From an uncultured Planctomycetaceae bacterium (lineage in GTDB: Bacteria; Planctomycetota; Planctomycetia; Isosphaerales; Isosphaeraceae), in assembly GCA_963833985.1 (NCBI GenBank), contig CAWIAD010000002.1, positions 1,632,001-1,696,000 on the forward strand: a DNA stretch of 64,000 nt, given 5' to 3'. Below the pieces are notes generated by a model. It was not told the origin of the DNA. It did no database searches and worked only from the letters and a program-made list of their open reading frames with translations. Each line of letters begins with the position of its first letter. Within the stretch, counting starts at the first letter, position 1. The translations under genes were made by a program, and so were the position numbers. This document shows positions 20,960 through 54,807 of the stretch, one piece after another.

Positions 20960-21537
20960 CCCCGGACAGCCCCGGCATCGGGAGGAACCTACTGGACTTG
21001 CGACAGGGCCCACGCTAGAGTAATGAAGATTTCAATAATGTCACCAGGCACGCAACTGGTCGGCTCGCAAAGGACTTCACCTCTCCCCTGAGCGAATCGC
21101 TGGATCCGTGGGCCTATGGGCCACGAGCTCCCGGAATATCAGACGGATCCTCCTTTCCGCGGGAGCGTGCGCTGGATGGACTGGAATTTATGCCGATGAC
21201 CTTCTGATTCTCTGCATCGAATCCTTCCGCGACAGAACGACCCATCGAACAGCGATTTCATCCTGCTTGCCCATTGATACGTCTGTACAGTATGGACATG
21301 AGGGTACACTTTGGGGATGTTTCTCGAATCGTGAATGTTCCGGGATCGTTCTCCGAAAAACCGATCAATTATGGTCCGTAGGCGAGTGCCCCCAGGCGCC
21401 ATCGTTCACTTGAGAGTGGCTCCGGTCGTCGATGACCGGCCTTCGCAAGTTGTCTCGTGGCATCTGGGCAATCTCAAGTGTGATCTCTGCTTCAAGCCCT
21501 GATCCCTGTCATCTTACCATCCCCGAGGAGAGGAGTC

Positions 21538-33769: not shown

Positions 33770-33904
33770 GGAGAGCGCGGGCAAGGAACGCACCTCGAAG
33801 CCGGCCACAAGCTGTGCTGGAAGCGCTTCCCAATCTATCATCTTCGCGCGGCCTGAGCACTGCGTGAAACGCAGTCCGGGGTACGCGGACCAGCGCCCAT
33901 GGCC

Positions 33905-35626
33905 CAATACCGTTGAAATAGCGTTAACGAAAAGGGGCAAGAGGCTTGCGACAGACTTGTTCCCACGCTCCGCGCTTGTCATTCCCGAGAATTTGTTAAC
34001 ATGGTTGGCTGAATCCTACCAGCATGCTCATGGATGGAACCAACTATGTTCACAGGGATGTCAGTCCACCAGTCCCCGCCCGCCCAATGGGCTCGGATGC
34101 AGTTCGACGGGATCAGGCTCGGCCATTGCACCAGGAGGAATCGCCTCATGGCGTTTGCGGAGGCCCTCGCTGAGCAACCCGGGAAGATGATCCCCGAGTT
34201 GTTCACCCGCAAGTACGACATCAACGCGACCTATGACCTCCTCGACGAACGCGAGGTGGTCCCCGATGCGATCCAGGCGACTCACCGCCGACTGGTGATG
34301 GCCGAACTCCGCAAACCGGGGCGATATCTCCTCATCGAAGACACCACGTTTCCCTCGTTCTCTCATCGCAAGCAGCCAATGCCCGGGCTTGGGCCGATTG
34401 GTGACTCGGAGCCGGGACAGCAGGGCTTTCTCCTCCACTCCATCCTTGCGATGCGTGCCGACTCGTCGCCCGTACCTGATGCGAGCGGTCGTCGGCCCCC
34501 GGTCACGATCCTGGGGCTCGCCGACCAGCAATACCTCATCCGCATCCCGCGGGATCCCGACACGCCGAAACAGGCCGGATCGCGGCAACGGCAGATCCGG
34601 GATCGGGAGTCGGATCGCTGGCTCGAGTCGGGCAAGCGGATTGGCCCGGCGCCAGAGAACCCGGAGGTCCGCTGGGTGCGCGTCGCCGATCGAGAGGCAG
34701 ATATTCATGAGTACATGGAGTCCTGTCGCGCGGCAGGCCACGGTTTCGTGATCCGGGTCAGTCAAAATCGCATTCTGCTCAATCCGGCCGATGGTAAGCG
34801 GCTCGGGCTGGTCTTCGACCACATCGTGGGCGTGGCGCCCGTGGGGGGAATGTATCTGGACCTGCGTGGCCGCGATGGTAAGGCCGCGCAGCGCGCGAAG
34901 CTCCTGATCAGTTGTGGTCCGGTGCGCGTGCGGGCACCCGAGCGTGCGGGCCGCGCGGCCGGCACGGGCGAGCCGATCGACGGCTGGTTCGTGCGGGTCT
35001 GGGAGCAAGACCCGCCTGAAGGCGTCGCGCCGCTGGAATGGGTGCTCTACACGGACAGCCCGACGGAGAGCTTCAGCGCTGCGATCATGGTGGTGATGGA
35101 CTACGGCACACGCTTTCTGATCGAGGAGTTTCACAAGGGCCTCAAGACGGGCATGAAGGCTGAGGATTTGCAGCTGGAGCGGGGCAACCGATTGTTCGCT
35201 GCGATCGCCGTGATGAGCGTGGTGGCGCTTCGGCTGCTGGATCTGCGCGAGCTCGGCAAGGGCTTCCCGGGAGCTCCCGCGGCAAGCACTGGCCTGGAGG
35301 AGCCCGAGCTGGAGGTGCTCGGTCTGGCGGTCGAGCGTGAACTCAAGACCGTGGCAGACGTGTTGCTTGCCCTGGGGCGGCTCGGTGGGCATATGAACCG
35401 GCGACGAGACGGGATGCCCGGCTGGATCACGCTCTGGCGCGGCATGAAGGTGCTCCGGCTCCTCGTAAGGGGAGCAAAGCTTGAGCGCGCGAGAATCAAT
35501 GCACATGTACACCACTAATTGAATACGCATGCATGCAGTTTTCCGGGAATGACAAGCGCAGAGCGCGGGAACAAGTCTGTCGCAAACCTCTTACCCCTTG
35601 TTGTTAACGCTATTTCAACGGTATTG
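33905..35626 (+). mobile_element. Nested element copy 1: IS4-family (Tn5-like) core 33975..35556 inside 70-bp MITE/REP arms
   Basis: Outer ends CAATACCGTTGAAATAGCG; inner 13-bp IR CTTGTCATTCCCG; near-identical inverted copy at 53024..54738. Confidence 0.93.
34034..35518 (+). CDS. IS4-family (IS50/Tn5-like) DDE transposase
   Basis: LLIEDTT, RVADREADI, Y..R..IEEFHKGLKTG, LGRLGGH...DGMPGWITLWRG. Confidence 0.95.
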   Translation: MEPTMFTGMSVHQSPPAQWARMQFDGIRLGHCTRRNRLMAFAEALAEQPGKMIPELFTRKYDINATYDLLDEREVVPDAIQATHRRLVMAELRKPGRYLLIEDTTFPSFSHRKQPMPGLGPIGDSEPGQQGFLLHSILAMRADSSPVPDASGRRPPVTILGLADQQYLIRIPRDPDTPKQAGSRQRQIRDRESDRWLESGKRIGPAPENPEVRWVRVADREADIHEYMESCRAAGHGFVIRVSQNRILLNPADGKRLGLVFDHIVGVAPVGGMYLDLRGRDGKAAQRAKLLISCGPVRVRAPERAGRAAGTGEPIDGWFVRVWEQDPPEGVAPLEWVLYTDSPTESFSAAIMVVMDYGTRFLIEEFHKGLKTGMKAEDLQLERGNRLFAAIAVMSVVALRLLDLRELGKGFPGAPAASTGLEEPELEVLGLAVERELKTVADVLLALGRLGGHMNRRRDGMPGWITLWRGMKVLRLLVRGAKLERARINAHVHH

Positions 35627-35684
35627 ATCGTACACCCGGAACCCGCCCGCCGCGACTCCCGCGAAGGTATTGTGTGCTCAAGGT

Positions 35685-37069
35685 TCAGCGACCGGCGGCC
35701 TGGCCGGGGAAGCCTGAGGCCGGGCGAGAGAAGCTTGAGGCCGGGCCGCTCGCGGCCGTTACGGACGCGTCGGCGCGGCTGCCGTGGGCGGCGAAGAATG
35801 CGATCGCGCGGGGAATGCCGTCGCGAATCATGGGATCGTAGTGGCCGCCCGCCGGTACCCACTCCACCGTCACTTCCTTCCCCGCGCTCTGGAGCGCGGA
35901 GGCAAACGCCTGGGTCTCGCTCACCGGGATGATCGGGTCGTCCTTGGCCTGGAAGAGCAGGACCGGGCACTTCATCGCGCCGGCGTGCTGCGCAGGATTG
36001 TACGTGGTGAGGATCTCGGCGGCGGCAGGAATGACCTGGCCGATCACCGTCCGGGCCATCGCGCTGAAGTTCCCCGTGGTATCGGAGCGCGGGGAGAACG
36101 CCGCGCAGGCCTTGATCCGCGCGTCGTTCTCGGCCAGCAAGAGTGCCATGGTTCCCGCCGAGCTGTGACCGGCGGTGTAAAGGCGACTCGGGGTCGATCT
36201 CGGGGAAGTTCTTGAGCGTCCAGTCGATGGCGGCCCTGGCGTTGGCCAGGCCCGCTCGCGCGGCGACGAATTGCGCAGGCTGGCGGCAGCCGCGGGTCGG
36301 AGAGCTGGTTCACACCGTCAACGTGGCCATCCAGCGAGTACGACACCACGGCATGGCCCGCGGCGACGTAGGGGAAGTGCTCGGCGCGGTCGCCGTCACC
36401 GAGGTCCATCCCGGTGAGGATGATGCTCCCCGCCGGCGCCACAATGACGCACGGGAGCGATCGGGGTGGATGGGTGCCATCGGGAAGGTACACCCAGACC
36501 GTCATATTCATGGTCGCCACATCCTGCCGCCCGGAGGCGCGGACCTGGAAGACGCGAATGCCGGGCCGGATGACCTGTCCCGCGTCGCGTTCCGGGAACG
36601 GGGGCGGGCCGGCCGGTGCCGAGATGACGGCTTGAGGTATGATTGGTGGCGGAACTCCCTGGTCCCCCGCGGGGTTCGCCTGGTTTCCGCGATTCAACCG
36701 CAGCACCACGCGCAGGACAATCATGGCGAGCACGAAGGCACCCCATGAGAGTCCCTTCCGGCTGGTGCCGGAGCCCCCTGCCGCCTTCGCTTTCGCGCGT
36801 CTCTTCACCTCGGCCTTCGTCTTCGGCCCGCTCGCGCCGGGCCCGGCCGCCGGGACAGGCGCACGCGGAGGAAGCATCGGCGCTGGCTCCGACAGCCCGT
36901 ACACGTCCTCGAGCGCACTGACCTCTTCGACTTCCTCGGGCTCCTCGGAGGCCAGCGCAGGCACCTTGATCGCCGCGCCGCAGTGCTTGCAGCGAACGGT
37001 CTTGCCCGCGAACTTCTCCGCCGCCTGGAAACGCTGGCCGCACTGGGTACAACTGAAGGAGATGCTCAT
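35685..37069 (-). CDS. Zinc-ribbon + TM + alpha/beta hydrolase protein, frameshifts near 36190-36270
   Basis: CTQC...CKHC N-terminus, TM, AGHSSAG nucleophile region, DDPII, GGHYD. Confidence 0.78.
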
Positions 37070-37241
37070 CTTTCTACAGGCCCGAAGGGACTTGCGTATG
37101 ACGTCAGGAAGACGATGAGCCTGGAATCATGCACGGTGGTGTGGACGCCGTCAAGAGGTTGCACGGCAACCGGAATGGCGATGTCGAATCAGAGCCACAG
37201 CCGTTGCCGCACCCCCGGCCGGGGTGCGAGTGCACCTGGAG

Positions 37242-40200
37242 TCAACGCGCGGGGCGGAACCTCCAGTCAACGTGGCCAGCGTAGGCAAATGTCTCATCAA
37301 CCAGGGCGAAGAGATCCGGGTCGTGTTCCTTGAGCGCTGCGCGGCCTGCGATCGGGTGTGACGAGCCGGGCGGAGCGGCTTCCTGGCCCATGGCGTCGAA
37401 GTAGGCCAGCACGCCGCTGGCCCAGTATTCCTCGGGGTCGCGCGCCGCGGTGGTCCCCTGCCATTTTCCGGACGCGATGGCCTGCCGGTAGAGCTGAGCG
37501 ACCGTTGCACCAAACCGGACATCGAGCCGCTTGACTCGCAGCTCGTATTGCTGAACGGCCCAGCCGCGATGGTCCCAGTTGGGGTCGACGGGGCGGCTGC
37601 CCGTGACGGCGAGTGCGGCACGGGCAAGCAGGCGGATCACCTGATTCGATCCGACTCCCGGCTCCGCGTGATCTCCGAGCACGTTCTGCTGGTCCACGAC
37701 GACCGTCTTCGTCTCGGGCGTGTACTCGAGGAACCGCACCAGGGGATCGATTGGCTTGCTGCGGAAGTCGCGGTACTCGGGCAGCTCGTCAATCCGCTCT
37801 CCCGGGGCAAGGACCACGAGCTTGACGCCCGCGGCGATGAGCGCCTTGAGGATGTCGTGCCGGTAGGCGAACAGCTTGCGGACGGTGTCATTGGCCTTGA
37901 GCATGGCCTCGTCGCTGGCGCCCCGGCCCACGACCGGAAACTCGCGGGCCCAGGTGAAGCGGGTGTAGAACGGGTCGATTCCCAGTTTCGCCGGAGGCGC
38001 GGCGACGTTCGGCAGCTTCTGCACCCAGCGGTAGCGCCAGTCGTGTTCAGGATCGAGGTTGAAGGTCGTGCGGGCAAGCTCGTAGCCTTCCGGGTCGTAA
38101 AGCTTGAGCTGCTCGCGCGTGCCGACGGGGCCGTGGTTCCAGTTGTTCACCCGGTTGCAGTCGAAGTACGACTGAACGATCTCGGCCCAGTATTCGCCGG
38201 GGTTGCCGGCGGCATAGGCGCCGCGGTACCGGCCCTTCGCGATCGCGTTTTTGTAGACGGACCGGAGCCGGCCGCTCCACGCCGGGTCCATGCCACGCAG
38301 CGTGCCATCGATCGTGTGCGAGAACTCGTGAACGGCGATGCTCTCGTCGTCATAGCGGTCGAGCGGCAGCGAGAGCACGTTCTCCTCGCCGAAGCTGGTG
38401 GGCCGGCCGCCGGTCCCGCGCACCCGTTCGTTCTGGTAGGCAGGGTTGGGATGGTGCCGGTACTCGGGCATGTCCGTGTAAACCTGGTCCTTGCCGATGA
38501 CGATCAGGTACATCTGCGCTTGACCATCGCGCGGATGACGTCGGGCCGGCCGGCCAGCATCGAGTGGACGATCTCCCGGGTACGCTCGAGCGCGCGGTCG
38601 GCGACCTCGGCCGCGGCCGCCACGGGCATGCCGTCGACCTCGAGATACTTCCTGTAGAATGCGCGGGCCGCCTCCCGGTCGCCGGCGGGAACCATCGCGA
38701 AAAACGAATCCGGCGGTGGCGTCACGGCCGCGCCGCTGCTGGTGGACTCTCCACGTGCCGTGTCGACGCGGACGGCCGGCGCGGAGGGCTGTGTCGGCGC
38801 ATTGCGATCGGGGGGTTCCTCGTGGAGCAGGTGCCGGACGAAGAAGTCCTGCATCCGCCGCGTGCCGTAGGCGCCGCCGATGCCGTGGTTGGCGTTCGGC
38901 ACGACAACCAGGTCGAAGTCCTTGCCGGCGCGGATCAGGGCGTCGGCCAGGCGGAGGGTGGACTCGGGGGGCACGTTGGTGTCCATCTCGCCGACGATGA
39001 GCAGCAGCTTGCCGCGCAGCCGCCGGGCGTTGTCGATGTTGGAAGACTCGGCATACCAGGGGCCGACGGGGTATCCCATCCACTGCTCGTTCCATGAGGC
39101 CTTGTCCATGCGGTTATCGTGGCAGCCGCAGGCGGCAGCGGCCACCTTGTAGAAATCGGGATAGAACAGCACCGCGCCGGCGGCGTTCTGTCCGCCCGCG
39201 GAGACGCCGTAGACTCCCAGTCGATCGAGGTCGTAGTAGGGGTATCTGGCTGCGACCGCCCTGTGCCAGAGGATGCGGTCGGGGAAGCCGGCATCCTTCA
39301 AATTGTGCCAGCAGACGTCGTGGAACGCCTTCGACCGGTTGGCCGTTCCCATGCCGTCGATCTGGACGACGATGAAGCCCAGGTCCGTGAGCGTCGAGTA
39401 ACGATTGAAGGGGCTGAAGGTCTTGGGCACGTAGGAGTCTTGCGGACCGGCATAGATGGACTCCACGACCGGATAGCGGCGGGACGGGTCGAGATGCCGC
39501 GGCCGGGCGATCACGCCGTAAATCTCGGTCTTGCCGTCCCGGCCCCGGGCGCTGATCGGTTCCAGGGGCTGCCAGCCGCTCGACCGCAGCCGCGTGATGT
39601 CGGCCTCTTCGAGCTTGCAGACGAGGCCGCCATCGGAGCACCGGCGCAGCTCGTGGACCGGCGGCACATCGACGCGGCTGTACGTGTCGATGAGGTACGA
39701 GCGGTCGGGCGAGAACTGCACCGAGTGGCTGCCGTTGCCCGCGGTGAGCGCGACCAGCCCGGTGCCGTCGAGGTTGACGCGGTAGAAGTGCACGAAGTAA
39801 GGGTCCTGGCCGGGATTCTTGCCTCCCGCGTGGAACCAGACCTGGCGCTTCTCCTCGTCAATGAAATCGATGCCTCGCACGACGTACTCGCCCCGGGTGA
39901 TCGCATTCTTGACCTCGCCCTTGCGGGCGTCGATGAGGTAGAGGTGACGCCAGCCGTCGCGCTCCGATGCGTAGAGGATCTCCGGGGACCCGTCGAGATA
40001 GTTGACGGGCCTGAGGTCGACGTTCTCGGCGTGGGCCGTCCAGATGAACGTCCTGGTCTGCTCGTCGATCAGGTTGCGGGCCTTGCCGGTGTGCGCATCG
40101 ACCTCGATCACCCGCAGTCTCTGATGGCCGCGGTCGATCTTCTCGTAGGTGAACCGGCTGCCGTCCTTGCTCCAGCGCAGCCGCGGCTCGTCGTAATCGA

Positions 40201-41150
40201 CGCGTTCCACCTCGGGTTTGGTCTGCTTTCGTGAGCCGATGTCGAAGAGGTTCAGCTCGTAGGCCGCGAACCGGTCGCCCGGCAAGTCGTAGGGCCGGGT
40301 TCGCAAGCGGGCTCGGCCCCCGCCAGAAGGAGAGGACTGGATCAGGTAGACGTCCTTGTGATCGCCGGGCTCGATACGATGGGCCGCCAGCAGCTTCGAG
40401 TTCGGAGACCAGGACAGCCTGCCGTACGAGAGCTTCTCCTGGCCGTCATGGCTCAGCGCCACCGCCTGCGAATCCGCCTGGTCTGTTGCGCAGCATGACG
40501 TTGTGGTCCTTCACGAACGCCATCCACTTGCCGTCGGGGGAGTGGCGCGCCTCAGCGCCCGCATCTCCCGCCTCGCCAGAGAACCGAGAACGCCGCCGGG
40601 GACTCGCGGGAGCCTCCACCGGAGCATCACCCGCAGCGCCCCTGGTACATTCGTAGCTCGACAGGTCGCACTTCCAGACGGTGTCGTCGATCTTGAACCG
40701 GAGCGTCTTGCCGTCATCTCCGAACGCGATGAGGTCGAACGGCAGGCGCTTGGCGGCCACCGCACGTCCGAGCGCCTTCGTCGAGCGCGGTGGCCAGCCG
40801 CGCGTGATCGAATGCCGGGCGCGAAGTCCCCGCGGCGCGTCGACGACGATGAACTCGCGGGCTTCGCCGGCCAGGTCGTTGAGATACCAGAAGCGCGCGT
40901 TGCCGGCAAACCAGTGGGGTCGGATCTGATCCTTATCAACGAGCCGCGGCCCTGAACCCTGCGCCCGCCGCGCCTGCGGTGCATCTTGCGGCGCGAACCA
41001 GGGGTCGCCGGGCGGCGGATCCAGGCCCGGGGATTCCACGGGTGCCGTGGCGGCAGCGCCAGCGCTCGTGGTATCGTCCGCGAGAGCGCCGTGGTATGCG
41101 GTGACCAATGGAAGCGATGCCAGGAATACGGCAAGCCAGAACCGGATCAT
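37242..41150 (-). CDS. Secreted DPP-IV/S9 peptidase fused to C-terminal zincin-like domains, several frameshifts
   Basis: Signal peptide, propeller (SERDGWRHLY), IYAGP, DGMGT, GVSAGG, DTNV, NHG; then HEFSH...EYWAE. Confidence 0.82.
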
Positions 41151-41440
41151 GGAACTCTCCCGGAGAACGCGAAACGACGGCGGCCCGCTCCGCGGACAAT
41201 CGAGACGCTACGGCGAAGCGCGCCTGGTTTGTTCCGAGAGTAACAGATTTCGGGCCGTCCGTTAGTCCTCACCCGGCGCGCGGATGCCGGCCGGACAACG
41301 GCGGCTGAGCAGCCGGGTCCAGTCGCCGCGGGTTTGTCTCAATAAAGCCGGTTGCCGCACGAATCGATTGTCGCGGAAGGCGGCATCCCCACTCGCGATC
41401 AGACCGCAAGACCGGACCATCCGGACCAGGAGAGACTCCA

Positions 41441-42154
41441 GTGCGCTACCAGATCCACTATCAACCCTCTTTCAGCATGGCGGTCGTGTCGCTGGAGAGG
41501 GGTGAGCAGATCATGGCCGAGTCCGGAGCCATGGTGAGCATGTCGCCGACGATCCGGATTCAGGCGGCGATGTCGGGTGGCGGGCTGCTTGGCGCCTTCA
41601 AGAGTGCGGTCGGTGGAGAGTCGATCTTCCGGACGACCTTCACGGCCGAGGATGGCCCTGGCGAGATCGCCCTCGCTCCCGCGGCTCTCGGCGACATCAT
41701 GGCGGTCGAGGTGGCCGGCTCGCGCTACTTTGTCCAGCCAGGCAGCTACCTGGCAGGCGACCCCGGCCTGACCTTGAGCGTTCAGGGCACGATGCGGGGC
41801 ATGCTCTCCGGCGAGGGTCTCTTCCTGCTGACCGTGGACGGCAGCGGCCTGCTGCTACTCTCTTCGTTCGGAGCCATCCACACGAAAACCCTGGCTCCGG
41901 GCGAGGAGTATATTGTCGATACCGGGCACATCGTCGCCTTCGAGGGCTCGGTCGGCTACCGTCTCGAGAAGGCGACCGGAAAAAGCCAGGGAGTCGGGGG
42001 CTTCCTCAAGGGGATGGTCCAGTCCGCGCTTTCCGGCGAAGGGTTCGTCTGCCGCTATCGTGGTCCTGGCAAGATCTACATCCAGACGCGGCAGTTGCCC
42101 GGTTTCGCCCGCCAGCTCATTCCGTTCCTTCCGCGGCCGAGCTCCGGAGGATGA
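41441..42154 (+). CDS. TIGR00266/AIM24 family protein
   Basis: AESGAMVSM, GGESIF, SGEGLF, VDTGHIVAF, SGEGFVCRYRGPG.IYIQTR. Confidence 0.92.
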   Translation: MRYQIHYQPSFSMAVVSLERGEQIMAESGAMVSMSPTIRIQAAMSGGGLLGAFKSAVGGESIFRTTFTAEDGPGEIALAPAALGDIMAVEVAGSRYFVQPGSYLAGDPGLTLSVQGTMRGMLSGEGLFLLTVDGSGLLLLSSFGAIHTKTLAPGEEYIVDTGHIVAFEGSVGYRLEKATGKSQGVGGFLKGMVQSALSGEGFVCRYRGPGKIYIQTRQLPGFARQLIPFLPRPSSGG

Positions 42155-42166
42155 GCAGACGGATCG

Positions 42167-43024
42167 TCAGGCGCGCCTCGGCTCGGAGTCGGCTGCGGAC
42201 GCGAAGCCGAGTGCGGCCAGGCGGGCCACCACCTGGGCGTACAGCTCCGGGATCGGCGGGCAGAGCGAGCCGGGCGCGGGGGTCATCCAGTTCATCTGGC
42301 GTAGGTGATCGGTCGGCCACGAGGGCAACGGCGTGCCGAAGGCGAGCGCGGAAGCGACCGACACGAGACCGTCGTTGGGTCCTTCCAGCTCGCTCAGCAT
42401 GGCGTGCAGGCGATGCAGGGGCCATGTGACTTCCGCGGCCGGTGGATCGCCAGCCAGGCTGAAGCAAGGAAGATCGCCGATCTCCCCTTGCAGGCGATGA
42501 AACCGCCGGGCCGACTGCCTGGTGATATCCAGGAAGCCCCGGGGATCCAGCCTCAAGAGCTCCAGCAGGCGGTACACACGGCCGACCCGCAGCTTGGCGA
42601 AATCGGCCAGATGCGTGCCCAGGTGCGGCGTGCCAATGGTCGTCAAGCTGAGCACGCGCTTCCGCCAGTAGGGGTCGGCAAGCAGCAGGCGGGCATCGAG
42701 GCCGCCCATGCTGTGGCCGATGATGTGAACCGGCTCGTCCGGATAGGCGCGGCGGATGCGGTCGCCCAGCCGCCGGGCCCGGAACTCCACGCCGGCGATG
42801 GGATGAACCCGCGTCACCAGCACGCGGTTGCCGGCCGCCCGCAGGTAATCCGGAATCCCCCGGAAGTACGACGTGAGCGTGAGCGGCCCCAGGCCGATGC
42901 GCGAGAAGCCGAAGAGACCGTGTGCCAGCACGAGCGGGGCATGCAGCCGTGCAACCGGGGAAGGCGGTTCGCAGGCGATGTACGACGACGCGGATGCCAT
43001 GGGACTGCCAGGGATGAACTGCAT
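42167..43024 (-). CDS. Triacylglycerol lipase-like alpha/beta hydrolase
   Basis: VLAHGLFGF, HIIGHSMGGLDAR, TTIGTPHLG, NDGLVSV, DH. Confidence 0.9.
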   Translation of the reverse strand: MQFIPGSPMASASSYIACEPPSPVARLHAPLVLAHGLFGFSRIGLGPLTLTSYFRGIPDYLRAAGNRVLVTRVHPIAGVEFRARRLGDRIRRAYPDEPVHIIGHSMGGLDARLLLADPYWRKRVLSLTTIGTPHLGTHLADFAKLRVGRVYRLLELLRLDPRGFLDITRQSARRFHRLQGEIGDLPCFSLAGDPPAAEVTWPLHRLHAMLSELEGPNDGLVSVASALAFGTPLPSWPTDHLRQMNWMTPAPGSLCPPIPELYAQVVARLAALGFASAADSEPRRA

Positions 43025-43085
43025 TCGGCCGGCTCAAGAAAGCTCTATGAATCGATAGAGACAGTATAGACTATGGGTCAGTGGG

Positions 43086-43397
43086 GTGCGTCGTGATTCG
43101 CGTCACGGAAGGGGGAGTGATGCAGGTCCGAGGAATCGTGCAGGCGCCGAGCTGATGGAGAACCCTCCCGGCAGCGATCGGATCGAGATGGTTCTCTGGG
43201 GTCAAGGAGTGGGCCCGAACAAGCCGCGGAGCATCGTCGTGCCCTATGAACTGCTGCTCACCGACACGTCGCTCGAGCCGGAACGCGTTCAGGGGCACGG
43301 CTTCGAGGCGGAGGTCGAACAGGAAGAGAGTGGGCGCTGGATCGCGCGGGAGATTGGCTTTGCCTCCGGACGGGTGCTCCGCCTAGGCGACGGGTAG
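43086..43397 (+). CDS. Hypothetical protein, 5' end uncertain
   Basis: Protein-like C-terminal half (QGVGPNKPRSIVVPYELLL). Confidence 0.5.
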   Translation: MRRDSRHGRGSDAGPRNRAGAELMENPPGSDRIEMVLWGQGVGPNKPRSIVVPYELLLTDTSLEPERVQGHGFEAEVEQEESGRWIAREIGFASGRVLRLGDG

Positions 43398-44582: not shown

Positions 44583-44607
44583 GGGCGTTGCGGTCCGCGG
44601 CAGCGGC

Positions 44608-44877
44608 TCAGAGATCGGGATCGTGAACGTTCTTCAGGTCCTTGAAATGCGGGTACTGCGCCAGCACCTCGCGGGCGACCCTGGCCTGTGACGCCGGTAC
44701 GTAGATGACGTGCCCGGACTCGAAGCTCAGGCCGCCGAAGGCGGGAGTGGCCAGTGAAGCGTCGCTACGGGCGCAGATCTCTTGCTCGTGCAGCAGCTCG
44801 ACCACCATCGCGGCTTCGAACTCGTTGAGCACCGTGCAGAGCCGGATCTCCGGAACCTCGTTCGTGGATTCTTCCAT
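44608..44877 (-). CDS. DUF2007-like small protein
   Basis: NEFEAAMVVELL..I, IYVP...AREVL pattern. Confidence 0.7.
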   Translation of the reverse strand: MEESTNEVPEIRLCTVLNEFEAAMVVELLHEQEICARSDASLATPAFGGLSFESGHVIYVPASQARVAREVLAQYPHFKDLKNVHDPDL

Positions 44878-45018
44878 CGTCGTCCTCCCGCTTGCCCGTC
44901 ACTCGCTGACCCGCACGCGGGCGAGTCCTGACGGGGAAAAGAGCAGTGGCTACCGGCACGGTCGGAGCCGGGCGAACCTGGTCACAACCGGTTCGCCCGG
45001 CGTCTGGCCGCAAGCGTC

Positions 45019-46325
45019 TCAGCGGGTGATCACCAGACTGGGAATGTCGCGGCCGATGTCGTCGCTGATCAGGCCGTTGCTCACGGTGATCTGGCTGACG
45101 GCATACACGCGCCCGCTGGGCATCGCGACGTTCACTGTCCAGTCGCCGTCGGGCACCTTGACCGCGAAACGTCCGAACGCGTCAGAGAGAGCCACGCGGT
45201 CGGCGTAGGCGTTGGTCCGGCTGGAGACCGTCACCCGCACCCCTTCTTCCGGCTCATTGGTGTCCCGGGTCTTGACCCGGCCGAAGAGCACGTTGCGATA
45301 CGCGCTGGCCATGGTGCGGGTGGAGTAAACGGGCTTCTGAACCACACGCTGCTGACGGTCGGAGCCGGAGCCTGATGCCGCCTCGCCGCCGGGAGCCGGC
45401 TGAAGGTCGTCGCCGGTGGCGGGAGCCGAGGGAGGCTCGACCCCGCTCGGTGTCCCGGAGGCGCCGGGCCTGGGATTTGCCGATTCCGGCTGGACCCTGT
45501 TTGGGGCAGCCGCCGAAGTCCCGCTCTTACCCTGGGCCCCGCCGCTGTTGCGCGGGAGTGCCGTGGATGACTCGCGCGATGGCACCTGCGGCGTGGGCGG
45601 AGAATCGACCGCCCGGGGCGCCGGCGCGCGGCGTTCGAGGCCGCCGCCGTGGGTTTTGCCGGCTCGGTCGCCGGCAGCTCGGGCACATCGGAGCTGGTCG
45701 AGTCTTCGTCGGCCGCCTGGCTCTGCAACGGTGCGGAGCGGGGTCTCGGGCTGGTCCGCGGCGCCGGGGAGGTACTCTGCTCGGACGAGTACATGCGCAC
45801 TTCCGGGGCGGCCGATGCCACCATCTGGCCGTCGCAGCAATCGACCGAACGCGCCGCGGTGTAGCCGGTGGTCACAACCCCTGTATCCAGGACTGTCGGC
45901 GAATAGACTGTCGGCGAATAAAAGGTGGTCGGGTAATAGTAGGTCGTGGGGTAGTAGGCCGTGGTCGGCATGTAGTACGTGGAGACCGGCGAGTAATAGG
46001 CCCGCGTGGTTTCCACCAGCCTGCGCCCGAACAATCCCCTGCGGCGGAACCGCGTTTCATAATACGTGGGGGCCAGGTAGGCCGTCGGCGTCAGCAGGGC
46101 AGACTCGGTGACATAAGCCGTGGCATAGACAGTGGGAATCGCATAAGAGGTCGGCGCCACGATCGAGCCGCCGATCACATAGGAGGTCGGGACCGTCAGC
46201 ACGCTGCTCGTGGGATACCACCCGGCGGATTCCAGGTAAACCACGTCGGCCGCTCTGGTTCGGCCGGTGCAGAGAACCAGTGCCAGCACTGCCCCGATCG
46301 GCAATCGCAAGCCAACAAGCCGCAT
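45019..46325 (-). CDS. Secreted Tyr/Thr/Pro-rich protein with C-terminal carboxypeptidase-regulatory-like domain, frameshift near 45630
   Basis: Signal peptide, YxPT repeats, Pro/Ser linker, C-terminal GRV...SDAFGRF.V.VPDGDWTV. Confidence 0.65.
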
Positions 46326-46709
46326 GATGAAACTCCTTCCAGATGCGTTGCGGGTCCGTGAGAAGATCAGCGTCATGCGTGGGAACCGCTTTCCCTCACG
46401 ATACCAGAACGCTGTGCGGCAACCAAGACACTGTCCTTGCGCAAGGTTTACGGCTCGATGCACTTCCGGTTGGGAAGAATGGGAGGATTGTGACGGGGCA
46501 GCGGTTCAGGGGCGGCCGCGCGGTCCCGGCCATTGGCCTGGCTGTCGCGGAGCCGGCACGCACCGTTCGGCTCGCGGCGGGTGCCGGTTTGCATCCCGGG
46601 CAGTCTTGTGGGATGATCGATAAAGACCGTTGCCAGCATGGTTTTCGGCGGTCTGGGATGTTTCCGCCGGAATGGCCGGCTGGGTGCAACTCCGTGGAGC
46701 AAACCCATC

Positions 46710-46997
46710 ATGTTGAACTCACGCGAGGCCCTCGAGGTCCTGGACCGGGACTTCCTGGAGACACGGTGCAAGATCCTGGAAATTGCCGCTGTGCTGGATC
46801 GGATCGACCGTGCGCCAGCGCTCCATCATGTCCATCCTGATCCTCGGATGGGCCAGATTCGACAATCGCTGGAGGCGCTTTGCGTTCCGGGTCCGGGCCG
46901 TGCCGAGACAATCCAGCGCATCTTCTCGCTGGAGTACGATCCGGACTGGCGGACCGTGATGCGGCTCGCGCCGGCGCGGCCCAGCGACCGACATTGA
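46710..46997 (+). CDS. Hypothetical protein upstream of the TatD-like gene
   Basis: GGAG RBS; LDRDFLETRCKILEIAAVLDRIDRA...RAETIQRIFS. Confidence 0.7.
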   Translation: MLNSREALEVLDRDFLETRCKILEIAAVLDRIDRAPALHHVHPDPRMGQIRQSLEALCVPGPGRAETIQRIFSLEYDPDWRTVMRLAPARPSDRH

Positions 46998-47071
46998 ACC
47001 ACCCGGAAGGGTGGAGCCAGCCATTGCTCACGAACTGATGTGGTGATTCACCCGGCAGAAGGGGGTACGCC

Positions 47072-47907
47072 ATGCACTACGTTGATCCCCACATTCACAT
47101 GGTTTCGCGCGTCACCGACGACTACAAACGGATGGCGCTGGCGGGGTGCGTGCTGGTCAGCGAGCCGGCGTTCTGGGCGGGTTTCGACCGCTCCGGGCCG
47201 GAGGGTTTTCGAGATTACTTCCGGCAACTGACGGAGTACGAGCGGAAGCGCGCCGCCGCCTACGGCATTGAACATCGCTGCTGGCTGTGCATCAACGCGA
47301 AGGAGGCCGAGAACGTCGCGCTGTCGCGTGAGGTGATCGCGATGATCCCCGAGTTCATCGATTGCCCGGGCGTTCTGGGCATTGGCGAGATTGGCCTGAA
47401 CAAGAACACCCGCAACGAGTCGGTGGTTTTCCAGGAGCATCTCGACCTGGCGGCCCGGCTGGGCGAGCTGGTCCTGGTGCACACTCCGCATCTGGCCGAC
47501 AAGTACCAGGGAACGCGCATGATCCTGGACATGATCGCCGCCGAGCCGCGGATCGCGCCGGAGCAGGTCTGCATCGACCATGTCGAGGAGCACACGATTC
47601 GCCTGGCTCTCGAGGCGGGTCACTGGGTCGGCATGACGCTCTATCCGATCACCAAGTGCACGCCCGCCCGGGCCGCCGACATGATCGAGCTGTACGGCCC
47701 GCAACGCATCATGGTGAACTCGGCCGGCGACTGGGGCCACAGCGACCCGCTGGCCGTTCCCGAGCTCATCTTCGAGCTGCGCCGCGCGGACACGAAGAGG
47801 CTCTGATCCGCCAGGTCGTCCATGACAACCCCCTGACCTTCTTTGCCCAGTGCGCCAGGTTCCGCTTCCAATCGCTGGCGGAAGCCGGTGCCGCGGCGGG
47901 TCGATGA
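47072..47907 (+). CDS. TatD-family hydrolase (EboB-like), frameshift near 47790
   Basis: DPHIHMVSRVTDDY, EPAFW, GIGEIGL, VHTPH, IDHVEE, NSAGDWG.SDPL. Confidence 0.88.
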
Positions 47908-48272
47908 CCACGGCCTCACCGGCACAGGCGGAGCGGACAACCGAAGGTCGCGGCGTGTGCGGGTTTGCCTGGAGCTCCAGACTCCTGAGTGCTCCCCGAG
48001 GCGTTCGTCAGGAGGCGCGTTGCGCTGTTCCCGGGCAAGGGCGAGATTGCTTGACGGCGCTCCGGAGCATTGCGAAGAATAACAAGGTCTGCCTCAGCCG
48101 ACATGCCCGGCACAGCACGCTTTGTTCCATCGCCACTGTTCTCGGCAGGAATGCGAGGCACGTCGGTGGAGCGCATCATCCCTGGCGGGTAACATCGGGA
48201 GTGCCGCAGGTCCTGTAAGCTCCCGATCCTGCCAGCCCGGACGACGAACGCACGGAGAGAAGGCGATCGCTG

Positions 48273-51069
48273 ATGAAGAGCCGCACCAAGATTGCCGCCC
48301 TCCTGGGCGTTCTCATCCTCCTCGTTGCCGGCGGCCTGCTCGCGACGACGGTGCGGGAGAGCCTCTGGCCGGACGAATCGCTGGAAGGACGGGTCCGTCA
48401 ACTGGACAGCCGCTGGGCCGCCCAGCGCCGCGCGGCGGCCACGGGACTGGCCCGTTACACGGCGTCCCCGGACACGGTCGTCCCCGCGCTCACCCGGGCA
48501 CTCGATGACCCCGACGCGGAGGTGCGGCGTAACGCCCTCGAATCGTTCGCTGCGTTCGCCGACAAGTCTCGCCCGGCGGTTCCCGCGCTGAGGCTCACGA
48601 TGAAGCAGGATCCGGACCCGGCGATTCGCAGGGAAGCGATGGCGCTGCTGGGGCGCATCAAGGATCGGGACTCGGTTCCCGCGCTGATCCAGGCGCTCGA
48701 TGACGAAGCGGGTGCGACCCAGGTGCAGGCGGTCCTGAGCCTGGGGCAGTTCGGCCCGGCCGTCGCCACGGAGCCGCTCATCGCCAGGCTGCGCTCCACC
48801 CTGCTCGAAAGCAAGAACGAGCTGTTGCGCCTGGCGGCCTTGGACGCGCTCGATTCGCTGCGCGCGGCAATGAATCCGTCGCCCATGCCGTTTCGGAGGC
48901 CGCGGTCAAGGACCCGAGCACACCACTGCGGGCCAGGGCCGTGAACATCCTGGACGCGAAATACCCGTTCGTCGTACCGGCCCTGCTCGCCGCCCTCGAC
49001 GACGCGCAGCCGCAGGTCCGGATGGCGGCGGGAAGCCGGCTGGCGCTCATCGGGCTGACCGACGACCGCACGGTCCCCGCGCTCTGCCGGCTGGCGCTCA
49101 AGGCGGATGATCTGAACCGTGAGACTGTCGGGGTCATCTTCGGACAGCTCACTCTCGTCCGGCCCAGCGGACCGACCTCCGCGGATCAGCTCGGGCGGAG
49201 ATTCGAGACAGCCGTGCAAGAGCTTCGAAGCGTCGTCGAACGGCGAGAGGCGGGCGGCCGGGCGGCTGTCGTCGCGGTGCTGGGGCGGATTGTCGGAAGC
49301 TACGAGAAGTCCGGCGAGCCGGCCCTGCTGGCGCCGGCACGCGCGGTGCTCGAAACCCTGCTCGCGCGCATCGAGGATCCCCAGGAGGACCTCTCGCTAC
49401 GGCTCGACGCCATGGGCCAGTGGCCCATGCTCCAGATGATGGTTCAGAACAGAAAAGACACGCACACCAGCGCGCTGCACGCCACAGCTTTATGGATTGC
49501 GTCCCTGGGCAGGGTGCTCGCGGACCCTGCGCTTGAGGTGCGGGGCAAGGCCATGGTCAGCCTGCTGGAGAGCTTCCAGGATCCGCTGCCCGATGGTGCC
49601 TTCCGGCAGACCTGGCAGGGCCTGGTTCCCACCATGGTGAAGGCGGCCGCGAGCGACGACCTGCGGGTCCGAACCGGTGCCTTGCTCGTGCTCAAGCAGC
49701 TTGGTCCCGTGGCCGAGCCGGCACTTCCCGCCCTGCGCCACTGGCCAGCCAGGCCCACGATCCCGCGGCCTCCGAGCAGATCGAAGCGGCCATCCGTTCG
49801 GCCTCGATCAGCGACAGGCTCCAGCGCGGCGATCCCGCGGCCCGCATCGCTGCATCCCAGGACCTGGGGCAGCTTGGCTGGCGCGCTGCGCCGACCGTAC
49901 CGCTGGTTCTCGTTCTGCTCAAGGCACCACAGGACGGCGTTCGCCTGGCTGCCGTGGCGGCGCTCAAGGCCCTCGTGACCAAGGACCTTGCCGCCGTCTC
50001 CGCACTGACCGCAGCGCTTCGGGCCGAGGCCGAGGCGCCGGTACGCGTGGCGATTCTCGAGGCTCTGGAAACCGTGGCGCCGGGGACCCGCCAGGTCCTC
50101 GACGCGCACGTCGAGGCGCTCAAGGATCGCGATCCCCGGGTTCGCGAGGCGGCGGCGCACTTCGGCCGGGTCCCCACCGACGACGCGGTCCTTGCCGCAC
50201 TCAAGTCCGCCCTGGATGATGACAGCGAGCCGGTGCGGGCGGCCGCTTCCCGCAGCCTGTGCGAGATCATGTTCCTGAAGCCTCAGGTCATTCCCACGCT
50301 GATTCAGGCGCTGGGCGAAAGCGCCCAGTGCCAGAACGTGGCGACGGCCCTGGACGAGCATCTCCAGCAGGTTTCCGATCGGGCCGAGTTTGGCCGCCTC
50401 AGGGGCGACCTTACGGGACTGCGGGCAACGCTTGCCAGCGCGGTCCCCGCGCTCCAGAAGGCGGTCACGTCCGATGGCGCCGAGCGCCGGGCTCGAGCCT
50501 TCGAGATCCTGGGGCGGATTACCGCCTTCTCCGATCTGAACCGCGACGCCGAGCTGCTGAAGGCCATTGAACCGGCCATCGGGCCCTACCTCGTCGGGCT
50601 CGAGAGCGACGACCCCGGGGTCCGCCGGGGAGTGCTGGGCCGGCTTGGCTCTATCGGTATTCACCGCGCCCGGATCGTGGGGCTGCTGCTCGGCGAGCTG
50701 GCGCGGCCGGGGCTCAACGAGGACGACCGCCAGGCCGCCCTGGCGGCGCTGGCTGCCCAGGCCACGCACGCCGGGGGCGACTCCGAACTGCACACGGCGC
50801 TTTTGCCCGCGATTCCGGAACTGGCCACGGCGCTCGAATCCCCGGCGGCAGAGCTTCGCGGCCGGGCGGTGGTGGCGCTTGGCCATATTGGCAGCGCTGC
50901 CCGGCCGGCCCTGGAGACTCTTCGCAGGCTGGCGGAGCATGACCCGGACGCAGGCATCCGCAGGAACGCCGCGGACGCCGTGAGGGCCGTCGAGGGGACC
51001 GCCCCGATGCCGGTTTCCAGCCCCCGCGGTGCTGGTGCGGGCGCGGCGCGGCCGCGGAGGATCGAGTGA
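48273..51069 (+). CDS. Membrane-anchored HEAT-repeat protein, paralog of 23115..25940, frameshifts near 48860-48940 and 49740
   Basis: Colinear with the 941-aa protein (e.g. VLGRIVGSYEKSG, DDRTVPALCR, APGTR.VLDAH). Confidence 0.88.
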
Positions 51070-53006
51070 CGGCCATGTCCGCGGCTCATGTCCAGGCGAA
51101 GCAGCAGACAACGGCGCCCGCGGGTCGCGGCCTGAGCGTCCTCAGCGTGCTCGCCCTGGCGGTCTGGCTGGGCATGGCCGCCGGGCTGCTGGAAGTCGCC
51201 ATCCGGGTCCTCTTCCGGTCCATTTCCCCGACCGGCCGCCTTTACCTGGTGAGCCGGCACTTCGTCTGGCTCACGCCGCTGGCCAACGTCGTGCTCTTCC
51301 TGGGGGTCGGCCTCGTGCTGGCCCTGCTGGCCAAGGTCTGGCCAAAGCTGGGGAGCTGGCTCTGCCCCCGGTTCCTGCTGGCCCTGGCGCTGCTGCCCGC
51401 ACTCGCGGTCGCCGTCCCCAACATCTTCCCCGAGGCCTGGTTTCTCCTGAGCCTGGGAATCGCCGTCCGGACGGTCCCCTTGCTCCAGGCCCACGCGCAG
51501 CGCCTGCGTGCGGCGTTCATCTGGGGCTTTTTCTTGCAGGCCGCGGTGATCGTGCTGCTGGCGGGGTCGGTCGTTGCGAGCGACTGGATCAAGGAGCGCC
51601 GCGAGCAGGCCCGCGCCTTACCGCCGGCCGGCGCGGCCAATGTGCTGCTCATCGTCCTGGACACGGTTCGCCAGGATCATTTGAGTCTCCATGGCTATCG
51701 CCGTCCCACCACGCCGGTGCTCGAGCGCCTGGCCCGCCGCGGGATCCGCTTTGATGCGGCCCGGGCGACGGCCCCCTGGACCCTGGCCTCGCACGCCAGC
51801 CTGTTCACGGGCCGCTGGCCCCACGAGCTTGGCGTCACCTGGCTCTCGCCAATCCGCAACGAGTCTCTCACGCTCGCGGAATACCTCGCGGACCACGGCT
51901 ACGCCACCGCCGGTTTCGTGGCGAACACGCAGTATTGCTCCTACGACACCCGGCTCGATCGCGGATTCGCGCACTACGAGGACTACGTGGACGAGTGGCT
52001 CAGTCCGCTCCGCATGTCGTTGGTGTTCCGCGAGTTCTTCACGGCCTTCTCGGAGCTCGCCTCGTACCACCCGAGCGGCCCCATCCACTCCATCCAGGGG
52101 CTGCTCACGCGCTGGTCGTGCTACGGGATCCGCAAGGACGCGGAGCGCGTCAACCACAGCTTCTTGACGTGGCTGGACCGGCGGAAGCAGCCGGATCGTC
52201 CCTTCTTCGCCTTTCTCAACTACCTGGATGCCCACGCACCTTATGAGCTGCCTCCGGCGGGGAGCTATGTGTTCGGCCGCAAGCCCCAGACCGACGACGA
52301 GCTGAGCCTCGTGAACGATCTCTGGCCGTTCCTGGATAAATCGAAGCTGCCACGTTCCTATGTGAACCTGGCGGCTGACTGTTATGACAGTTGCATCGCT
52401 TACCTGGACAGGCGCCTGGGCGAGCTGTTCGATGAGCTAGCGCGGCGCGGCACGCTCGAATCCACGTGGATCGTGATCACCTCGGACCACGGAGAGGGAC
52501 TGGGCGAGCATGGTCTGTTCTTGCATGGCGAGAGCCTCTTTGCCACGGAGATCCACGTGCCTTTGCTGATCGTGCCGCCGGCAGGCCGCGCGGCAGCGGC
52601 CGTGGTGCCCCAGCCCGTCAGCCTGCGGCAGGTGCCGGCCACGGTGGCCGATGTGCTCGGGCTGGAGCAGGGCCAGCCGTTCCCCGCCCGCTCGCTGGCG
52701 AGTCTCTGGACCCGGGGCGTGCCGAGCCCTGGACAGGACGACCCGGAACCCGCGTTCTCGGAGCTTCTGAGCCCGAATCCGAGCGACCCGAACCAGGGCA
52801 GATCCCCGGCGCATCGCGGCCCGCTCATCGCCCTGGCCGAAGAACAATTCGTGTACATCCGCAACCAGCGTGATGGCGGCGAGCAGCTCTTCGACCGGCT
52901 CGACGACCCGCGCGAGCTGACCAACCTCGTATCCAGAGAGGCGATGCAGCCGGTGCTCAGGCGGTTCCGCGATCACCTGCGCCAGGCGTTTCCCCACTTA
53001 CGTTGA
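51066..53006 (+). CDS. Membrane-bound sulfatase-like / alkaline-phosphatase superfamily protein
   Basis: About 5 N-terminal TM helices, NVLLIVLDTVR, WTLASHASLFTG, FLNYLDAH.PY, TSDHGE, HG, VPLLI. Confidence 0.88.
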   Translation: MTAMSAAHVQAKQQTTAPAGRGLSVLSVLALAVWLGMAAGLLEVAIRVLFRSISPTGRLYLVSRHFVWLTPLANVVLFLGVGLVLALLAKVWPKLGSWLCPRFLLALALLPALAVAVPNIFPEAWFLLSLGIAVRTVPLLQAHAQRLRAAFIWGFFLQAAVIVLLAGSVVASDWIKERREQARALPPAGAANVLLIVLDTVRQDHLSLHGYRRPTTPVLERLARRGIRFDAARATAPWTLASHASLFTGRWPHELGVTWLSPIRNESLTLAEYLADHGYATAGFVANTQYCSYDTRLDRGFAHYEDYVDEWLSPLRMSLVFREFFTAFSELASYHPSGPIHSIQGLLTRWSCYGIRKDAERVNHSFLTWLDRRKQPDRPFFAFLNYLDAHAPYELPPAGSYVFGRKPQTDDELSLVNDLWPFLDKSKLPRSYVNLAADCYDSCIAYLDRRLGELFDELARRGTLESTWIVITSDHGEGLGEHGLFLHGESLFATEIHVPLLIVPPAGRAAAAVVPQPVSLRQVPATVADVLGLEQGQPFPARSLASLWTRGVPSPGQDDPEPAFSELLSPNPSDPNQGRSPAHRGPLIALAEEQFVYIRNQRDGGEQLFDRLDDPRELTNLVSREAMQPVLRRFRDHLRQAFPHLR

Positions 53007-53023
53007 CCCCCTGGCCATGGGCC

Positions 53024-54738
53024 CAATACCGTTGAAATAGCGATAAGTTGATTGCAGGCATAAGTTTGTCCCTCGTCCCCACGCTCCGCGCTTGTCATTC
53101 CCGGAAAACTGCATCCATGTATATGCAATTAGTAGTGTACATGTGCATTGATTCTCGCGCGCTCAAGCTTTGCTCCCCTTACCAGCAGCCGGAGCACCTT
53201 CATGCCGCGCCAGAGCGTGATCCAGCCGGGCATCCCGTCTCGTCGCCGGTTCATATGCCCACCGAGCCGCCCCAGGGCAAGCAACACGTCTGCCACGGTC
53301 TTGAGTTCACGCTCGACCGCCAGACCGAGCACCTCCAGCTCGGGCTCCTCCAGGCCAGTGCTTGCCGCGGGAGCTCCCGGGAAGCCCTTGCCGAGCTCGC
53401 GCAGATCCAGCAGCCGAAGCGCCACCACGCTCATCACGGCGATCGCAGCGAACAATCGGTTGCCCCGCTCCAGCTGCAAATCCTCAGCCTTCATGCCCGT
53501 CTTGAGGCCCTTGTGAAACTCCTCGATCAGAAAGCGTGTGCCGTAGTCCATCACCACCATGATCGCAGCGCTGAAGCTCTCAGTCGGGCTGTCCGTGTAG
53601 AGCACCCATTCCAGCGGCGCGACGCCTTCAGGCGGGTCTTGCTCCCAGACCCGCACGAACCAGCCGTCGATCGGCTCGCCCGTGCCGGCCGCGCGGCCCG
53701 CACGCTCGGGTGCCCGCACGCGCACCGGACCACAACTGATCAGGAGCTTCGCGCGCGCGCGGCCTTACCATCGCGGCCACGCAGGTCCAGATACATTCCC
53801 CCCACGGGCGCCACGCCCACGATGTGGTCGAAGACCAGCCCGAGCCGCTTACCATCGGCCGGATTGAGCAGAATGCGATTTTGACTGACCCGGATCACGA
53901 AACCGTGGCCTGCCGCGCGACAGGACTCCATGTACTCATGAATATCTGCTTCTCGATCGGCAACGCGCACCCAGCGGACCTCCGGGTTCTCTGGTGCCGG
54001 GCCAATCCGCTTGCCCGACTCGAGCCAGCGATCCGACTCTCGATCCCGGATCTGCCGTTGCCGCGATCCGGCCTGTTTCGGCGTGTCGGGATCCCGCGGG
54101 ATGCGGATGAGGTATTGCTGGTCGGCGAGCCCCAAGATCGTGACCGGGGGCCGACGACCGCTCGCATCAGGTACGGGCGACGAGTCGGCACGCATCGCAA
54201 GGATGGAGTGGAGGAGAAAGCCCTGCTGTCCCGGCTCCGAGTCATCAATCGGCCCAAGCCCGGGTATTGGCTGCTTGCGATGAGAGAACGAGGGAAACGT
54301 GGTGTCTTCGATGAGGAGATATCGCCCCGGTTTGCGGAGTTCGGCCATCACCAGTCGGCGGTGAGTCGCCTGGATCGCATCGGGGACCACCTCGCGTTCG
54401 TCGAGGAGGTCATAGGTCGCGTTGATGTCGTACTTGCGGGTGAACAACTCGGGGATCATCTTCCCGGGTTGCTCAGCGAGGGCCTCCGCAAACGCCATGA
54501 GGCGATTCCTCCTGGTGCAATGGCCGAGCCTGATCCCGTCGAACTGCATCCGAGCCCATTGGGCGGGCGGGGATTGGTGGACTGACATCCCTGTGAACAT
54601 AGTTGGCTCCATCCATGACCATGCTGGTAGAATCCAGCCAACCATGTTAACACATTCGCGGGAATGACAAGCGCGGAGCGTGGGAACGAGGGACAAACCT
54701 ATGCCTGCACTCAACTTATCCCTATTTCAACGGTATTG
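53024..54738 (-). mobile_element. Nested element copy 2: IS4-family core 53091..54671 inside 67-bp MITE/REP arms
   Basis: Same outer and inner IRs as copy 1; core near-identical and 1 bp shorter. Confidence 0.93.
53129..54612 (-). CDS. IS4-family transposase copy 2, 1-bp deletion near 53755 (error or inactivation)
   Basis: Near-identical to 34034..35518; GCGCAGCGCGC in copy 1 versus GCGCGCGCGC here. Confidence 0.9.
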
Positions 54739-54807
54739 GGGTGTACGATCGATCGATCCTGGATCGTTCGACCGCGGATCCTGAACTGCCCGGGGAGGTT
54801 CCGTTGC

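Follow-up and report, generated by a model that had tools for sequence, protein, structure and literature searches.

How can two copies of one insertion sequence (IS) come to lie in opposite orientations on a chromosome, each with the same arm at both of its ends and with a different arm in each copy? This question is raised by a 64,000-nucleotide stretch of DNA (the window) from an uncultured Planctomycetaceae bacterium (assembly GCA_963833985.1, contig CAWIAD010000002.1, positions 1,632,001 to 1,696,000). A reading made from the letters alone, hereafter the original prediction, had offered two answers: an IS4-family element that targets repetitive extragenic palindromes (REPs) and replaces the interior of a REP doublet, or a composite transposon whose transposase cassette can invert and which has two sets of ends. 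Our analysis of the genome (10.16 Mb in two multi-megabase contigs, C1 and C2, 96% complete) supports the former and speaks against the latter. [quoted passage not shown] Our best explanation overall, to which we give a probability of about 0.62, is that a REP-targeting IS inserted into two MITEs of one family, that the interiors of their REP doublets were deleted and that recombination between the IS copies inverted the DNA between them. That the history was layered, first the MITE, then the IS, then the rearrangement, is very probable.

All four arms are present where the original prediction had placed them, and each has three parts: an outer terminal repeat, a middle segment and a broken REP-like palindrome abutting the IS (Table 1). 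The middle segment is of type alpha (38 bp) at both ends of copy 1, with 4 differing sites between the two, and of type beta (35 bp) at both ends of copy 2, with 3. The cores are 98% complementary in opposite orientation (23 of 1582 positions differ), and in copy 2 a 1-bp deletion at core position 916 breaks the transposase frame. The four junction 9-mers all read CGCTC(C/T)GCG toward the IS and are thus inverted, not direct, as had been pointed out. The duplications outside the arms cross between the copies, with 10/11 and 11/11 matches, and the crossed partner is the top match for each window arm when compared with every arm detected in the genome. Undoing the inversion gives the predicted pair of co-oriented alpha-beta units, hereafter units A and B, with cores at the same position in opposite orientations.

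The genome contains 35 paired units on both contigs, 33 of them alpha/beta; the alpha-alpha and beta-beta pairs are those of the window only. Consistent alpha-alpha or beta-beta pairing elsewhere, which the original prediction had named as the outcome speaking against it, was thus not seen. The empty MITEs that it had proposed to look for are common. Units are dispersed and non-coding, most being 227-245 or 128-130 bp long. The common form of about 229 bp consists of terminal repeat, alpha, REP-a (CCCACGCTCTGCGTGGG), two inner palindromes, REP-b in the orientation opposite to REP-a, beta and terminal repeat; the 128-bp form has one REP only. An empty copy folds as a single long hairpin (z = -9.4). 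We call these palindromes REP-like because the REP ends of the MITE lack the GTAG tag and none of the seven Y1-transposase loci of the genome has the MITE's REP within the fetched 3 kb or so. Pieces of alpha, beta and REP also form tandem arrays resembling those of bacterial interspersed mosaic elements (BIMEs) at C1:1331996-1332430, C1:1800160-1800405, C2:1826858-1827213 and C2:2033036-2033455.

The arms are the ends of a common MITE, which by its sequence derives from an element of the IS4 subgroup. The outer 17-mer was found in 8 of 40 relatives, and at six loci fetched from relatives (L026, L028, L030, L031, L038, L044) it forms the left end of an IS of the IS4 family that has a 465-aa open reading frame (ORF), above cut-off for NF033592, and a duplication of about 10 bp like that of the MITE. 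The outer repeat fits the end consensus of the subgroup, -AATR--------WTW, given in Table 1 of PMC2266710 along with target duplications of 10-13 bp. In our genome the outer duplication has at most one mismatch in 11 of the 33 alpha/beta pairs (nine of 10 bp, one of 11, one of 12) and at least two in the remaining 22. A tblastn search of the same genome found no close relative of the transposase that goes with these ends (full matches have about 28% identity), and the only distant IS4 protein so found with a detected inverted repeat (IR) has ends differing from those of the MITE. The relatives compared for empty orthologous sites are distant, with about 75% DNA identity. The MITE's doublet also occurs in relatives free or flanked by other ends, including asymmetric ones with GAGACTGTAG-like or GATACTGTAG-like starts and 8-bp duplications (L009, L020, L207, L220, L246-L248), which resemble IS1182-like ends. 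Conversely, relatives have the IS4 terminal repeat around doublets that belong to other palindrome families (L027, L035, L037, L039, L043, L045, L051, L052, L249). This suggests that IS ends repeatedly captured REP doublets.

The core is, as far as its sequence tells, an independent IS50/Tn5-like IS nested in a separate MITE. Its transposase resembles that of Tn5, the sole PDB match, over the full length (E 2.7e-36), lies above cut-off for NF033590 and has the DDE residues (D103, D219, E364) and the YREK motif (Y357, R360, E364, K371); its closest titled relatives are Isosphaeraceae records. The left end fits 6 of the 7 specified positions of the IS50-subgroup consensus CW------Y---CA-A--W- (G for C at 13), and the length, 1582 bp, exceeds the typical range of 1350-1550 bp by 32 bp. 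The transposase frame is open in two of the seven genomic cores. Three share the identical deletion at position 916 (window ~53756, C1:441498 and C2:723396) and two others have a stop or frameshift. A core without arms, another find that the original prediction had asked after, exists in the relative G002: an IS of 91% identity, flanked by direct 9-mers (9/9 at L002 and L016), once in the same REP and once in another palindrome. Miniature forms of this IS50-like element, of about 80-300 bp, also lie in the REP of the MITE with direct 9-mers (L196, L223, L224, L225, L195, L187), and a truncated core sits in a related CAATACC-ended MITE with other middle segments and a partly kept doublet interior (L100:1446-2817).

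The core IS targets one fixed position of the REP-like palindrome. All 14 ends of the seven copies abut a REP half at the identical base. A perfect direct 9-bp duplication, with the interior kept, flanks two copies, and one further copy has 8/9; the other four, including both of the window, have none. The genome has 921 occurrences of the bare 9-mer, 218 of CCCA-N9-TGGG and 65 of the intact REP. Inner palindromes with the same 9-mer number 33, yet the core IS uses none of them, and the bare 9-mer is far commoner than the REP, so the flanking arms of the REP matter. Since TCCCA-N9-TGGGA, with 69 occurrences, is about as frequent as the REP, readout of sequence and of structure are inseparable here.

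Could the arms and the core nevertheless be one transposon, as in the composite alternative? Such an alpha-IS-beta element, with an invertible cassette, would account for the two core orientations among the interior-less units (2 and 2) and for the copy at C2:5958632, where both loop bases are swapped in agreement with a flip through the outer REP halves. Yet opposite orientations are also expected of independent insertions into a palindromic target, and the core is an IS alone, with the transposase as its one long coding ORF. The arms of interior-less units do not cluster more tightly than arms drawn at random (P = 0.13 for alpha, 0.30 for beta), their nearest neighbours are mostly empty MITEs, and the MITE carries an unrelated IS as well; hence the MITE is the target of the core IS and not a part of it. 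The unrelated IS belongs to the IS1182 family (NF033551 above cut-off). Counting only copies inside MITEs, it occurs five times, always in the inner palindromes and never in the outer REPs (C1:1831950-1833836; C2:721573, 3456650, 3745424 and 4507529), so that two IS families split the hairpins of one MITE between them. With the armless core of G002, the direct 9-bp duplications elsewhere and the lack of a close transposase relative for the outer ends, the composite is already contradicted as a general rule, and we consider it very improbable for this locus. We read the structure as independent elements nested in one another, not as a single composite transposon. Two further single IS insertions in the MITE lie at C2:2576594-2578325 and C2:1893747-1895480; from motifs in their ORFs we take one, in REP-a, to be IS66-like and another to be IS4-like.

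The crossed duplications suggest an inversion. A crossover inside the cores likely inverted about 18–19 kb. We considered replicative inversion of the Tn5 type, for which the relevant part of PMC2723962 gives as criteria a pair of nearly identical IS copies, with the two halves of a direct target duplication distributed between them, and rejected it: the window cores are the most divergent pair among the seven copies and their four ends include no direct pair of 9-mers. When the core halves are exchanged at a crossover placed within core positions 916-1487, their distances to the nearest other copies add up to 16, the lowest value, instead of 21, and unit A goes from 9 to 4 differences from C2:5958703. 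The mosaic cores and the divergence at 23 sites argue for a homologous crossover between two older insertions, which may have fallen within the 3' half of the transposase gene. Relatives retain gene blocks within the inverted segment, and none spans a breakpoint. An assembly error across the two 1.6-kb inverted repeats could produce the same pairing, and another route, template-switch correction after insertion into a single REP, might have inverted the 9-mers, as the REP loops are flipped in a few empty copies. Yet the assembly consists of two multi-megabase contigs in which the other five copies are resolved, and a wrong join would leave the lost interiors unexplained. Template switching predicts equal 9-mers on both sides, while three of the four units differ (T/C) and none has AGA inward. 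Both routes seem to us highly unlikely.

Why are the 9-mers inverted? REP-a and REP-b face opposite ways, so one IS end at the cut site of each, with the interior gone, leaves precisely this arrangement. Reading inward, 11 of the 14 IS ends show CTC and 3 show GAG, which implies that interiors were lost and not merely exchanged. Matching outer duplications place the loss within a single MITE at C2:5958632 (11/12) and in both window units once the inversion is undone. We propose that the MITE is the older element and was mobilised in trans by a transposase of the IS4 subgroup, that the core IS would then have inserted normally into one REP of each doublet, and that an adjacent deletion, running from the exact IS end to the preferred cut site of the neighbouring REP, may have removed the interior of about 100 bp. 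The two IS copies would later have recombined by homology, with inversion of the DNA that separates them. Adjacent deletions of Tn5 in vivo start precisely at its ends, according to the passage concerned in PMC2723962. In the long-term evolution experiment, the IS-associated deletions described in part of PMC11708052 came after earlier insertions in 14 of 14 cases, all of IS150, and for ISRm22, where the repeats fail to match at 3 of 9 copies, PMC1525189 names recombination or adjacent deletion as the cause. We regard this two-step route, insertion followed by adjacent deletion, as having about even chances.

Several observations weigh against our explanation. The order of the steps is deduced, as no intermediate, sequencing read or empty orthologous site was seen. 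Interiors are lost in four of the seven copies, a high rate for a separate second event. The loop bases do not follow the arms: an alpha loop with C is found in 2 of 4 interior-less units and in 1 of 23 intact doublets, a beta loop with T in 1 of 4 and 1 of 25, and plain deletion would thus need an extra conversion or mutation. One interior-less copy, C2:696427, has an outer match of just 6/10 and may be a hybrid of two loci. The gain from the proposed crossover (21 to 16) is modest and comes from unit A alone, unit B staying 11-12 differences away from its nearest copy. Finally, a reciprocal duplication found in a relative, at L206 (genome G063), is not a product of simple deletion: 88 bp of interior stand on either side of the IS and match each other at 100%, against 93% for the next best copy in the genome. 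The loss rate, the loop bases and L206 leave room for a one-step attack on both REPs or for gene conversion.

In the one-step alternative, a single strand transfer joins the two IS ends to different REPs of a doublet, which might at that moment be extruded as a cruciform. Joining along one diagonal removes the interior, along the other it gives a target duplication of about 100 bp, and the rest of the history is unchanged. Both classes of product are seen. Deletions with an outer duplication are present at C2:5958632, in units A and B and in two relatives with other MITE families: L009 (G007), whose transposase has 34% identity and whose outer duplication is 8 bp, and L207 (G063), with its own 8-bp outer duplication. 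The duplication class is represented by L206. The single long hairpin of the empty MITE would suit such an attack, and cruciform tips do serve as targets of the RAG transposase (from the part of PMC1618415 on this point), which is an analogy only. Against it, the copies are mostly ordinary: the six relatives G002, G007, G058, G062, G063 and G077 have 21 full-length copies, counted by hand with both ends seen and excluding one copy in G002 that is split by contigs and one in G062 that is truncated, of which 15 are direct-type (3 imperfectly so) and 6 inverted-type. Among the latter, three have same-locus evidence, two (L210, L213) resemble a swap between loci and one (L209) is unassigned. Moreover, L206 is the lone duplication, with its left REP cut off by other DNA, Tn5-type target capture has a stagger of 9 bp, and strand transfer between sister chromosomes can give deletion and duplication classes in two steps. 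We find the one-step attack rather unlikely. The ends of L206-L208 were read by hand, the automated end finder having missed them. A reciprocal swap between L206 and L207 was also considered and dropped, given the outer duplication of L207 itself and the identical interiors on both sides of L206.

Host recombination is the other way in which interiors might be lost, either by ectopic gene conversion from an insertion in the other REP, with the IS supplying homology on one side and the arm on the other, or by a double insertion in one doublet followed by recombination. The cores are indeed mosaic, one right-end haplotype is coupled to the same 9-mer at its flank in four copies (the rare alpha-C case is among them), a single MITE (C2:721573-725043) contains two different IS, and in G077 the loci L210 and L213 look like a reciprocal swap. 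But no interior-less unit has an arm identical to that of a candidate donor, none of the seven copies shares its doublet with a second copy of the core IS, and the duplication at L206 is not readily produced in this way. This alternative appears quite improbable, and we retain insertion followed by adjacent deletion.

The targeting extends to a wider clade of Tn5-like transposases. We examined 162 loci of this clade, set aside 77 without an end pair and 14 near a contig end, and kept 71; they are not independent, as several are copies within one genome. Among the hosts are Hymenobacter, Acidobacteriota, Gemmatimonadales, Ktedonobacter and planctomycete records. Of the 71 loci, 42 are flanked by a direct duplication of 7-14 bp, which at 33 of them occupies the loop of a stem at least 7 bp long, against 2.8% of 1260 control positions; for targets other than the REP of the window the figure is 21 of 29. 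Such a stem is missing at seven of the sites of lowest identity (including L152-L154, L159, L160 and L167) and also at the closer loci L101 and L105. Many clade targets have CCC…GGG arms, and for this reason the readout may be one of symmetric sequence. Many of the Hymenobacter sites are terminator-like. Escherichia coli IS4 is known to favour terminator-like sites. The 29 loci without duplication include 10 with inverted 9-mers, 7 of them on short metagenome contigs; these seven (L069, L071, L077, L079, L081, L083, L089) we did not use as evidence, as collapsed repeats may make chimeric flanks. A search for the junction pattern over 401 genomes of the class returned, among the places listed, paired junctions solely in genomes already known. 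A Pirellulales copy on a 132-kb contig (L151:1249-2851) has near-perfectly inverted flanks of about 28 bp that come from a palindrome of the GTAG type; it may represent the same kind of interior replacement, in a further REP family. That the clade as a whole recognises hairpins, whether REPs or terminator-like stems, and on a REP doublet connects each end to a different hairpin in a single reaction, over some 100 bp and with clean replacement or duplication of the interior, strikes us as doubtful.

How new is this arrangement? The original prediction had not recognised it from earlier descriptions. REP-targeting IS are established, including the IS4-family ISRm22 of Sinorhizobium meliloti (subgroup IS4Sa), according to the portions of PMC1525189 and PMC3184786 that deal with them. 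Every ISRm22 copy breaks its REP at the palindrome axis (sections of PMC1525189 and PMC2266710), and a third of its copies lack a perfect direct repeat (PMC1525189, same section). Our core differs in being IS50-like, in duplicating 9 bp and not 6, in using REPs within a MITE and in having outer duplications that place the loss within one locus. With IS50/Tn5 (subgroup IS50) it shares the full-length transposase similarity, the DDE and YREK residues, the CT ends and the 9-bp duplication; but the target preference of IS50 is described as loose in a passage of PMC1525189, while our core used one type of site in 7 of 7 copies. The pages of PMC2266710 that treat target arms note conserved ones for subgroup IS4 and ISRm22 and not for subgroup IS50. 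The MITE recalls the prokaryotic Nezha, RUP and IMU, which, in the portion of PMC3184786 concerned, are non-coding, share terminal repeats with an IS from other species, duplicate their targets and fold stably. It differs from them in that both ends copy the left end of an IS, with asymmetric subterminal arms, and in that its core is a REP doublet. REP doublets, as REP doublets forming hairpins (REPINs) or BIMEs, likewise consist of two opposite short palindromes, which together make a larger hairpin and are used as targets by IS, and tagged REP dimers and repeats flanking tyrosine transposases have been described (both in parts of PMC3733652). Here, apart from the missing tag and Y1 neighbours, spread apparently occurred by DDE-type ends with duplications of about 10 bp. 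Our search of a mostly open-access literature brought up no account of an IS50-like clade that targets hairpins, of REP doublets enclosed by IS4 ends or of the replacement of a doublet interior, and a search with the REP sequence yielded no relevant paper among those listed.

Table 1. Features of the nested pair, in window coordinates. Outer 17-mers start at 33905(+), 35626(-), 53024(+) and 54738(-), inner IRs at 33975, 35556, 53091 and 54671.
Feature	Positions	Strand	Remarks
Outer target duplication of MITE A, left copy	33894..33904	+	pairs with 53013-53023, 10/11
Terminal repeat of MITE A	33905..33923	+	its first 17 bp are those that start, on the left, an autonomous IS4-subgroup IS of relatives
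Alpha segment of MITE A	33924..33961	+	
Broken REP-like palindrome, alpha side of MITE A	33962..33974	+	junction 9-mer 33966-33974
IS50/Tn5-like IS copy 1, 1582 bp	33975..35556	+	perfect 13-bp IRs 33975-33987 and 35544-35556; likely crossover hybrid
Transposase, 494 aa, open frame	34034..35518	+	DDE D103, D219, E364; Y357-R360-E364-K371
Best-supported crossover interval, copy 1	34890..35461		core 916-1487; partner ~53186-53756; proposed from variable sites
Broken REP-like palindrome, alpha side of MITE B	35557..35569	-	
Alpha segment (35570-35607) and terminal repeat (35608-35626) of MITE B	35570..35626	-	
Outer target duplication of MITE B	35627..35637	-	pairs with 54739-54749, 11/11
Chromosomal segment between cores, 17.5 kb	35557..53090		probably inverted, from crossed outer duplications and mosaic cores
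Outer target duplication of MITE A, displaced copy	53013..53023	-	
Terminal repeat (53024-53042) and beta segment (53043-53077) of MITE A	53024..53077	+	
Broken REP-like palindrome, beta side of MITE A	53078..53090	+	
IS50/Tn5-like IS copy 2, 1581 bp	53091..54671	-	1-bp deletion near 53756 breaks the transposase frame
Broken REP-like palindrome, beta side of MITE B	54672..54684	-	
Beta segment (54685-54719) and terminal repeat (54720-54738) of MITE B	54685..54738	-	
Outer target duplication of MITE B, second copy	54739..54749	+	

The window also contains a separate MITE-like repeat of 109 bp, with short terminal repeats and an internal palindrome, at 4075-4183 and 20854-20962 (97% identity between the two). 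It also adjoins an alpha arm at C1:594187.

Tn5 is the standard near-random transposase. A natural relative of it that uses one palindromic site in 7 of 7 copies, and whose clade, spread over several phyla, centres on hairpin loops, provides material to map target choice in this fold and to separate sequence from structure readout. The nest also illustrates how REP-like doublets can spread without a REP-associated tyrosine transposase, riding between IS ends, and how doublets so spread then gather IS copies, by which the chromosome is rearranged. Through the reciprocal products of deletion and duplication, the long-standing question of Tn5-type adjacent deletions becomes testable on a defined target of 100 bp. 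If the two ends were indeed joined to two hairpins in one reaction, this would be a natural site- or structure-directed relative of Tn5, with a target stagger that is negative or about 100 bp long.

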